Source: Escherichia coli O157:H7 (GTDB taxonomy: Bacteria; Pseudomonadota; Gammaproteobacteria; Enterobacterales; Enterobacteriaceae). Taken from it: a DNA stretch of 64,000 nucleotides. The translations under genes and the position numbers were made by a program. Positions 60,219-60,291 of the stretch are shown in pieces. The first letter of the stretch is position 1, and the number at the start of each line of letters is the position of its first letter. The notes under the pieces are model-generated. The model was not told the DNA's origin and ran no database searches. It saw only the letters and a list, made by a program, of their open reading frames with translations. The stretch is from assembly GCF_013167455.1 (NCBI RefSeq), contig NZ_CP038328.1. One strand, 5' to 3'.

Positions 60219-60260
60219 GGCATCCTCCGGTTAAGTTTTTTCTCATTAACCGAAGGATAC

Positions 60261-60282
60261 ACTCTGGAGTCGACTCCAGAGT
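60261..60282 (-). promoter_or_regulatory. ZntR (MerR-family) operator inside the zntA promoter
   Basis: Perfect 22-bp palindrome actctggagtcgactccagagt, flanked on the minus strand by TTGACT upstream and a -10-like gtatcc downstream with a long spacer typical of MerR-type promoters. Confidence 0.8.
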
Positions 60283-60291
60283 CAAGTTTTA

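Follow-up and report, generated by a model that had tools for sequence, protein, structure and literature searches.

Among the questions raised by the short region that separates yhhN from zntA in Escherichia coli O157:H7, the most immediate one is whether it holds the ordinary zinc-responsive promoter of zntA, and a second one is whether anything else is written in the same bases. We approached both within a window of 64,000 nucleotides (the whole stretch of DNA analysed here), for which the original prediction had placed, at positions 60219-60291, an intact MerR-type zntA promoter carrying a perfect 22-bp ZntR palindrome between -35 and -10 elements on the minus strand. The coordinates do contain the site, but they cover the entire 73-bp yhhN-zntA intergenic region, with both open reading frames on the minus strand, and the palindrome itself is considerably shorter (Table 1). 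Its perfection was confirmed by direct reading and by an inverted-repeat search, which delimited two arms of 11 nt each, 60261-60271 and 60272-60282, with 100% complementarity. The promoter frame proposed for it also stands, although the operator overlaps the -35 hexamer by 3 bp (ACT) and is thus not strictly between the two elements.

Table 1. Features of the yhhN-zntA region, with positions numbered from the first base of the window
Feature	Position	Strand	Remarks
yhhN CDS, 208 aa	60292-60918	minus	same strand as zntA; from the list of open reading frames and annotation
-35 hexamer TTGACT	60285-60280	minus	last three bases, ACT, are the first three of the palindrome
ZntR operator ACTCTGGAGTCGACTCCAGAGT	60261-60282	.	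perfect 22-bp palindrome, 11 + 11, no central gap
Spacer ctggagtcgactccagagtg	60279-60260	minus	20 bp between -35 and -10
-10 hexamer TATCCT	60259-60254	minus	palindrome ends one base before it
Fold-back hairpin potential	60221-60259	minus	5′ arm UAUCCUUCGGUUAA, 60259-60246; loop of 11 nt; 3′ arm UUAACCGGAGGAUG, 60234-60221
Predicted transcription start	A at 60247 or 60246 (60246-60248)	minus	from the usual -10 to +1 distance, 7-8 nt after the -10
zntA Shine-Dalgarno GGAGG	60228-60224	minus	5 nt (atgcc) ahead of the ATG
zntA CDS, 732 aa	58020-60218	minus	Zn(II)/Cd(II)/Pb(II) P-type export ATPase controlled by PzntA
Operator half-copy GTCGACTCCtGA	60205-60216	minus	repeats the operator right half GTCGACTCCAGA directly at 11/12 positions; located on the start codon of zntA (atGTCGACTCCTGA)

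Read along the minus strand, the region runs from the yhhN stop codon (TGA, 60294-60292) through TAAAAC, TTGACT, ctggagtcgactccagagtg, TATCCT, tcggttaatgagaaaaaacttaacc, GGAGG and atgcc to the ATG of zntA (60218-60216), which lies 35 nt downstream of the -10. Both hexamers are recognisable and stand 20 bp apart, within the 19-20 bp that are the norm of the MerR class, and the spacer between them houses a dyad operator, whose centre falls near -24.5 as counted from the predicted start site. A 20-bp spacer is over-long for the sigma-70 RNA polymerase alone, and constitutes a hallmark of MerR-type promoters. A generic sigma-70 scan called no promoter at this site, but its silence is not evidence of absence because only spacers of 16-18 bp were allowed; we discounted it, as a scan with spacers of 19-20 bp recovers the zntA promoter (hereafter PzntA). 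From the position of the -10 we infer a start about 7 nt past the hexamer, at A 60247, and a 5′ UTR of about 29 nt. The GGAG core of the ribosome-binding site is invariant across the aligned Enterobacterales sequences (n=16).

The zntA promoter is known from E. coli K-12, where PzntA and ZntR were characterised by Brocklehurst et al. (1999) and Outten et al. (1999), as cited in PMC1526738, PMC3431237 and PMC9189660. The ZntR consensus has been defined as the 22 bp palindrome ACTCTGGAGTCGACTCCAGAGT inside a 20 bp promoter spacer (PMC1526738), and the operator found here agrees with it at 22/22 positions. The K-12 promoter carries the -35 TTGACT, and ZntR promoters show a 20-bp spacing, compared with the 19 bp of other members of the MerR family (PMC3431237). 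A 19 bp spacer has also been stated for PzntA (PMC9189660), at odds with the 20 bp that are read from the sequence when TTGACT and TATCCT are taken as hexamers, which is a discrepancy of definition. In published experiments, the promoter shows little activity when ZntR is missing; when ZntR is present, low zinc brings repression and high zinc an activation of around 10-fold (PMC9189660). In E. coli, PzntA is the sole known ZntR operator (PMC4507017). A search of published papers for a longer literal string of the promoter gave no matches.

The alignment with the known promoter, which had been suggested as a check on the original prediction, was carried out against K-12 MG1655, and both sequences agree at 73/73 positions of the intergenic region, including the -35 TTGACT and the 20-bp spacing reported for K-12 (PMC3431237). 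With 0/73 differences and a full-length ZntA downstream, calling the promoter “intact” is justified at the sequence level. A longer stretch of 151 bp at the site is identical to K-12 MG1655 at 150/151 positions, and the lone difference falls inside the yhhN coding sequence. The flanking coding sequences are 1.6-2.5% different from those of K-12, with third-codon differences of 4.3% in yhhN and 5.9% in zntA. At a broader scale, the 801 bp around the site are matched in 5425 of the 5426 complete E. coli genomes, with 100% identity in many strains of O157:H7, whose annotation names the flanking genes yhhN and zntA. An identity of 99% or more is reached by a 101-bp core in 5354/5425 of these genomes, as opposed to only 720 for the surrounding 801 bp, which shows that the promoter has been conserved more strongly than the coding sequences on either side. 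Over its whole length, the window is collinear with O157:H7 strain PV15-279 at 99.96% identity, and at the zntA locus it is an unaltered natural sequence of the E. coli O157:H7 type. PzntA is the workhorse of zinc, cadmium and lead biosensors. Its exact conservation was to be expected, since it is that workhorse and the only established target of ZntR.

How easily could such a palindrome arise without any regulator reading it? The sequence ACTCTGGAGTCGACTCCAGAGT occurs once in the 64-kb window, and 100 dinucleotide shuffles gave 0 matches to it when up to 3 mismatches were accepted. Spacerless perfect palindromes with arms of at least 11 nt appeared in 4/200 simulated 64-kb windows, so that the mere presence of so long a palindrome in 64 kb is unusual, yet possible by chance. 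Its placement is another matter: the window has no more than three TTGACN-N19/20-TAnnnT frames, and the one of PzntA carries the palindrome. A chance origin is excluded because the palindrome sits in a promoter frame directly upstream of a metal pump gene. The counts of shuffles, simulated windows and frames, together with the invariance of the site across genera, exclude an accidental palindrome. It could also be read as the operator of a different MerR-family regulator, such as CueR, MerR or SoxR. The long spacer with its dyad is indeed an architecture common to the whole MerR family, but the sequence is the ZntR consensus rather than the CueR signal ACCTTCCC-N5-TGGAAGGT, the regulated gene is zntA, and, of the metal sensors characterised so far, ZntR alone is stated to use a 20-bp spacer where the rest use 19 bp (PMC3431237). 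We regard either reading as extremely improbable.

The palindrome is unchanged in 15 of the 16 distinct Enterobacterales sequences that we compared, the exception (L169) having one G-to-A change, and all 16 share an essentially invariant stretch of 32 bp that spans the -35 and the -10, whereas the UTR and the first codons vary. Loci of ZntA relatives, taken from one genome per species, extend this comparison: the palindrome is 22/22 in Citrobacter werkmanii and Enterobacter sp., 19/22 in Photorhabdus and 16/22 in Vibrio bivalvicida, where the changes are mirror-symmetric (ACCTTGGAG...CTCCAAGGT). TTGAC, a spacing of 20 bp and a TAnnnT hexamer are present in all four. Judged from these sequences, a symmetric co-variation of both half-sites is what a dimeric reader would be predicted to leave. 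The orthologous -10 is found at the same offset as TATCCT, TATGCT, CATACT, TATGAT, TAGAGT or TACACT. When metagenomes were scanned for the relaxed motif TTGACNNTGGAGTNNNCTCCANNGT, 120 sites were recovered, nearly all of them with a -10-like hexamer at the same offset.

A separate peculiarity concerns the start of the coding sequence, where half of the operator recurs (Table 1). This half-copy within the first zntA codons is found as 12/12 in 6/16 Enterobacterales sequences and as 11/12 in 4 more. In the window, the half-copy atGTCGACTCCTGA also extends an imperfect 26-nt inverted repeat (I1).

The gene downstream is the one that a ZntR promoter should serve. Residues 1-732 of the 732-aa product align to positions 1-732 of the NCBIfam profile NF033775 (P_type_ZntA) with 1446 bits, over a cut-off of 1240, and RefSeq labels this reading frame as zntA in O157 and K-12 alike; PzntA thus precedes a full-length efflux gene. 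The regulator lies elsewhere. A tblastn search for zntR in the 64-kb window found none, as expected from a regulator that is unlinked to its target: in K-12, zntR is about 167 kb from zntA, adjoining arfA and yhdN. Its near-universal presence in E. coli (5425/5426 complete genomes) makes it very probable that zntR is present in the source genome. The structures of ZntR itself comprise residues 43-141 only, free of DNA (1Q08-1Q0A). As no ZntR-DNA structure exists, its contacts with the bases are deduced from CueR, CadR and MerR, and the nearest structural proxies are the CueR-DNA, CadR-DNA and CueR-RNA polymerase-promoter complexes.

Altogether, the element is almost certainly PzntA, the ZntR-dependent MerR-type sigma-70 promoter of zntA, in its native and unaltered form. 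The mode of action can be drawn from published K-12 work and from the homologues CueR, MerR, BmrR and EcmrR (PMC9909328, PMC9189660, PMC4507017). The dyad would be occupied by a homodimer of ZntR, whose gene is located elsewhere on the chromosome; without metal, the protein would keep the promoter weakly repressed, because sigma regions 4 and 2 would face hexamers that are too distant and wrongly phased. On binding Zn(II), Cd(II) or Pb(II), ZntR would kink and underwind the spacer, which would become effectively shorter and re-phased, so that the RNA polymerase could open the promoter and transcribe zntA. An over-long spacer is known to misalign sigma regions 4 and 2, and a metal-bound regulator to realign them by kinking and underwinding the DNA (PMC9909328); both the metal-dependent switching and the loss of response to the regulator when the spacer of a promoter is shortened come from published experiments with the K-12 sequence and homologues (PMC9189660, PMC9909328, PMC2611976). 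For the copy in this window, zinc induction would be expected from what has been published on K-12, whose sequence is identical, and nothing in the bases that we read contradicts the assignment to PzntA. Such an operator-promoter is ordinary and already known, and the finding of its palindrome matters only as a positive control, in that a MerR-type operator-promoter can be recognised from raw sequence.

The close proximity of yhhN invites a different look at the palindrome. The yhhN stop codon lies 6 nt upstream of the -35, which therefore leaves no space for a terminator ahead of the promoter. As yhhN needs a 3′ end somewhere, the palindrome could be primarily an RNA element of this gene, a terminator or a 3′-end stabiliser, with the promoter-like frame as something secondary. 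As RNA it would form a 9-bp stem with a 4-nt loop, and a terminator scan does flag it, on the plus strand only, with the tail CAAGTTTTAT. However, a plus-strand terminator would stop only RNA antisense to zntA, and on the minus strand, where yhhN is transcribed, the tail GUGUAUCC lacks a run of U and fails the terminator criteria. Across the whole stretch from yhhN to zntA, the scan of the minus strand gave no terminator-like site, and a Rho-independent yhhN terminator was rejected. Neither does the behaviour of the sequence suit a terminator, which would tolerate compensatory changes in its stem: the 22 bases are invariant across genera and equal to the ZntR consensus, and two hexamers held at a constant 20 bp from each other are no property of terminators. 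ZntR binding and zinc activation at ACTCTGGAGTCGACTCCAGAGT are, besides, published (PMC9189660, PMC4507017, PMC3431237). We consider it very unlikely that the palindrome belongs primarily to yhhN, and any terminator role would be secondary at most.

Taking the region as PzntA, there is nevertheless one potentially new item at the locus, and the only one. The bases that make up the -10 and the Shine-Dalgarno are complementary to each other. The 5′ arm UAUCCUUCGGUUAA consists of the -10 hexamer plus the bases that follow it, the 3′ arm UUAACCGGAGGAUG of the Shine-Dalgarno and its spacer, and together they form 14 consecutive pairs that cover GGAGG. A 44-nt RNA from 60259 to 60216 folds with -17.6 kcal/mol (z = -5.2), and 0/200 shuffles were equally stable, whereas the RNA that begins at the predicted +1 is no better folded than its shuffles (z = +0.4). 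As the 5′ arm is made of the -10 and the bases after it, a transcript that starts at the predicted +1 would be unable to form the hairpin. A read-through RNA of 105 nt, on the other hand, is predicted to adopt two adjacent hairpins, one from the operator palindrome and one from the -10/Shine-Dalgarno fold-back (z = -5.6). In 16/16 sequences, the segment from the Shine-Dalgarno to the AUG has a lower mean probability of being unpaired when it is folded as read-through RNA, although GGAG taken by itself does not become consistently more accessible in the short RNA.

The same folding potential recurs in other Enterobacterales. Among 16 sequences, 89.8% of the pair cells are paired, compared with 30-57% in slid controls, a statistic biased upward because the structure was derived from the same sequences; three pairs have changed on both sides. 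Many of the sequences are closely related. The pairing is kept despite a variable loop sequence and an outer arm-to-arm spacing of 11, 13 or 14 nt. When the folding window begins at the -10, z falls below -2 in 18 of the 19 promoters that carry the exact E. coli box (mean -4.66), and in only 8 of 100 other, non-enterobacterial MerR-type promoters, whose mean z is -0.46. We accordingly rejected the fold-back as a general property of MerR-type promoters. In Photorhabdus (L004) and Vibrio (L005), an inverted repeat containing the -10 exists as well, and stops short of the Shine-Dalgarno. An 8-nt loop, GAAAATTA, is identical in most of the non-Escherichia sequences.

As for known RNA families, Rfam 15 detected none at the locus when the whole window was searched at the gathering score. 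A local Rfam search, run at an E-value threshold, returned over positions 60205-60280 only two matches to miRNA precursors, both below threshold (20.4 and 15.5 bits, with cut-offs of 80 and 90), which reflect generic hairpin potential. We also sought a published description of a fold-back between the -10 and the Shine-Dalgarno in the literature, and found none.

An inverted repeat that overlaps the transcription start could be read by a protein instead of being folded as RNA. In most genera, the repeat between the -10 and the Shine-Dalgarno takes the form TAATGA...TCATTA, and its half-sites resemble the halves of a Fur box; it might thus be the operator of a second metalloregulator, for example Fur, that represses zntA from the start site. 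In Yersinia pestis, moreover, yhhN-zntA has been placed in a cluster of iron-responsive genes, with a predicted box of the Fur type, although its position relative to zntA is not given (PMC2231364). The sequences themselves argue otherwise. The best ungapped matches to the 19-bp Fur consensus GATAATGATAATCATTATC reach only 10-12/19, and the E. coli stretch from the -10 to the ATG, with 11/19, is equalled or beaten by 14% of its shuffles, which led us to reject a Fur box. The different arm spacing among genera (11, 13 or 14 nt) and the different inner arms of E. coli would be intolerable for a dimeric protein site as well, and a second operator at this position seems to us very unlikely.

The fold-back would make sense in relation to yhhN, and as an additional layer on PzntA rather than as a true rival to it. 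With yhhN lacking a terminator before PzntA, its transcripts would run through the promoter; in such read-through RNA, UAUCCUUCGGUUAA would pair with UUAACCGGAGGAUG and bury the Shine-Dalgarno of zntA, whereas RNA initiated at PzntA would lack the 5′ arm and stay translatable. The fold-back may thus silence zntA translation on yhhN read-through RNA, leaving ZntA to be made only from the mRNA that ZntR and zinc initiate. We put this forward tentatively, as a possibility that is less probable than its opposite. The strong folding of the 44-nt and 105-nt RNAs as against the one starting at +1, the pairing maintained across the 16 Enterobacterales, the lower unpaired probability upstream of the AUG in all of them, and the difference between the promoters with the exact E. 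coli box and the other 100 are all consistent with it. So is the position of yhhN, which abuts the promoter on the same strand in 17 enterobacterial loci, its last sense codon being 8-11 nt ahead of the -35 (the count comprises those loci whose match extends to the YhhN C-terminus), on a minus strand free of terminator-like sites.

Several observations pull in the opposite direction. The start site that excludes the 5′ arm is a predicted one, and read-through from yhhN is presumed from the gene arrangement; the pairing statistic is inflated because the structure comes from the sequences on which it was scored, many of the sequences are close relatives, and the accessibility of GGAG by itself does not rise consistently in the short RNA. 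The conserved GAAAATTA loop is not required by a pure hairpin, and the repeats of Photorhabdus L004 and Vibrio L005 do not extend to the Shine-Dalgarno. The logic of insulation was followed in the 189-nt yhhN-zntA gap of Photorhabdus, where a terminator scan called none, a result that speaks neither for nor against the fold-back. If true, the fold-back would act as an insulator of translation built into the locus, a function hitherto undescribed for the textbook PzntA, and would explain the tight zinc dependence of zntA although yhhN ends 6 nt from the promoter. It would then also be relevant to the cloning of “PzntA fragments” of differing lengths into reporters.

Comparison with known systems places both parts of the locus. 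The closest relative is the PzntA/ZntR system of K-12 itself: the 73-bp region is identical, with yhhN upstream, zntA downstream, and the same -35, spacer, palindrome and -10 TATCCT. There is no difference in the promoter, and the host here is an O157:H7-type chromosome. The founding MerR-type promoter, PmerT of Tn501 and Tn21, shares the -35 TTGACT and an over-long spacer holding a dyad operator (PMC3431237), and MerR, like ZntR, switches from repressor to activator through DNA distortion (PMC9909328). PmerT differs in its spacer of 19 bp instead of 20, in a different and imperfect dyad, and in mercury as the inducer; furthermore, merR is divergently linked to PmerT, whereas zntR is unlinked to PzntA.

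Within E. coli, PcopA and PcueO, controlled by CueR, share family and mechanism with PzntA/ZntR, and the structures of CueR bound to DNA or in complex with RNA polymerase and promoter (4WLW, 6LDI, 7C17, 6XH7) are the best proxies for the action of ZntR. CueR promoters differ in their 19-bp spacer and in sensing monovalent ions (Cu, Ag, Au), and the CueR operator (PMC1526738) departs from the ZntR consensus. A wider circle is formed by CadR/PcadA, PbrR/PpbrA and related environmental promoters of the type TTGACyyTGGAGT-N3-CTCCArrGT, which have the same overlap of -35 and dyad and the same offset of the -10-like hexamer, as in the 120 metagenomic sites, many of which precede metal ATPase or merR-like genes. 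In CadR/PbrR-type promoters, the half-site and centre bases vary, and the fold-back of enterobacterial zntA is absent (mean z of -0.46 as against -4.66).

For the fold-back, the nearest precedent comes from a transposable element. Davis, Simons and Kleckner reportedly described in 1985 how, in IS10 (Tn10), a fold-back inhibits the translation of transposase on read-through transcripts. The likeness lies in a sequence upstream of the gene's own start that pairs with the ribosome-binding site, in such a way that only transcripts from its own promoter are translated; given the predicted start site, a pairing of this kind with the ribosome-binding site is found at zntA. Two differences set them apart. 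In IS10, upstream transcription comes from random external promoters, whereas at zntA it would come from a conserved neighbour, yhhN; and the putative anti-Shine-Dalgarno arm of zntA would be, unlike that of IS10, the -10 hexamer itself together with the discriminator.

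Just upstream of zntA, the minus-strand metal-export ATPase gene activated by ZntR, the DNA encodes a potential fold-back between the promoter -10 and the Shine-Dalgarno region (z = -5.2), and this region is structured in 18 of the 19 promoters that carry the exact E. coli box. RNA starting at the predicted zntA +1 (A at 60247 or 60246) is missing this hairpin; on transcripts reading through from the upstream gene yhhN, the modelled structure may hide the zntA ribosome-binding site. We found no description of such a hairpin of zntA in the literature searched.

The two genes are tightly packed. 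In E. coli, the end of yhhN (60292-60294) lies 6 nt upstream of the zntA -35 element (60280-60285), and in 17 enterobacterial comparison loci (among L003, L007 and L083-L194) the distance from the last sense codon of yhhN to the -35 is 8-11 nt. No terminator-like site was found after yhhN on its own strand. In Yersinia pestis, yhhN-zntA has been handled as a single unit, which co-clusters with iron-responsive, Fur-box genes (PMC2231364).

A further repeat is seen where zntA begins: its first codons directly copy the ZntR operator's right half (60269-60280) at 11 of 12 positions, a match that rises to 12/12 in 6 of 16 Enterobacterales sequences. This half-copy could be the remnant of a duplication, an additional ZntR half-site or part of an extended fold-back, whose 26-nt arms show a complementarity of 73%.

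Features of the window around and beyond the zntA promoter
Feature	Position	Strand	Remarks
TTGACN-N20-TAnnnT frame	436-467	+	TTGACT...TAATAT
Rfam RF02891 (AgrB)	3225-3308	minus	full-length match, one of two (107 and 92 bits)
Rfam RF02891 (AgrB)	3459-3543	minus	full-length match, one of two (107 and 92 bits)
TTGACN-N20-TAnnnT frame	16880-16911	minus	TTGACG...TATACT
Block nikR to yhhJ	about 25840-32130		GntR regulator, PTS, kinase and aldolase genes; HicAB toxin-antitoxin pair
Cluster yhhT to acpT (~15 kb)	about 38350-53360		acyl-carrier, ketosynthase, dehydratase, LolA-like and MMPL genes
Operator half-copy GTCGACTCCtGA	60205-60216	minus	11/12 match to 60269-60280
14-bp hairpin potential	60221-60259	minus	zntA -10 hexamer and discriminator pairing with zntA Shine-Dalgarno region

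Besides the ZntR operator, the sole perfect 22-bp palindrome in the window is AACGCCCGCATATGCGGGCGTT (11015-11036), which in the matching O157 record lies ~27 bp 3' of the uspA stop codon and is therefore probably the intrinsic terminator of uspA. Beyond the zntA promoter, the window holds two TTGACN-N20-TAnnnT frames, neither of which has an obvious spacer dyad, so both are probably chance matches. The RF02891 matches lie inside the arsR-gor region and adjoin dinQ, which encodes a type I toxin; they are the antisense RNAs already known as AgrA and AgrB. Both gene blocks were taken from the annotation, with positions converted from O157 record coordinates, and the yhhT-acpT genes form an aryl-polyene-like lipid biosynthesis cluster. 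Further metal-regulator loci within the window are arsRBC and nikABCDE-nikR.

By sequence, TTGACT and TATCCT at the zntA promoter are 20 bp apart; published figures conflict, with either 19 bp (PMC9189660) or 20 bp (PMC3431237, PMC1526738). Among the metagenome sites matching a relaxed operator motif (L083-L202), almost all have a TAnnnT hexamer, with a spacer of 20 bp, or 19 bp in a few, and many lie immediately 5' of genes for merR-like regulators or of genes that open with Cys-rich metal-binding motifs. MerR-type promoters marked by this relaxed motif, TTGACNNTGGAGTNNNCTCCANNGT, form a class that is widespread in metagenomes from soil, water and gut.
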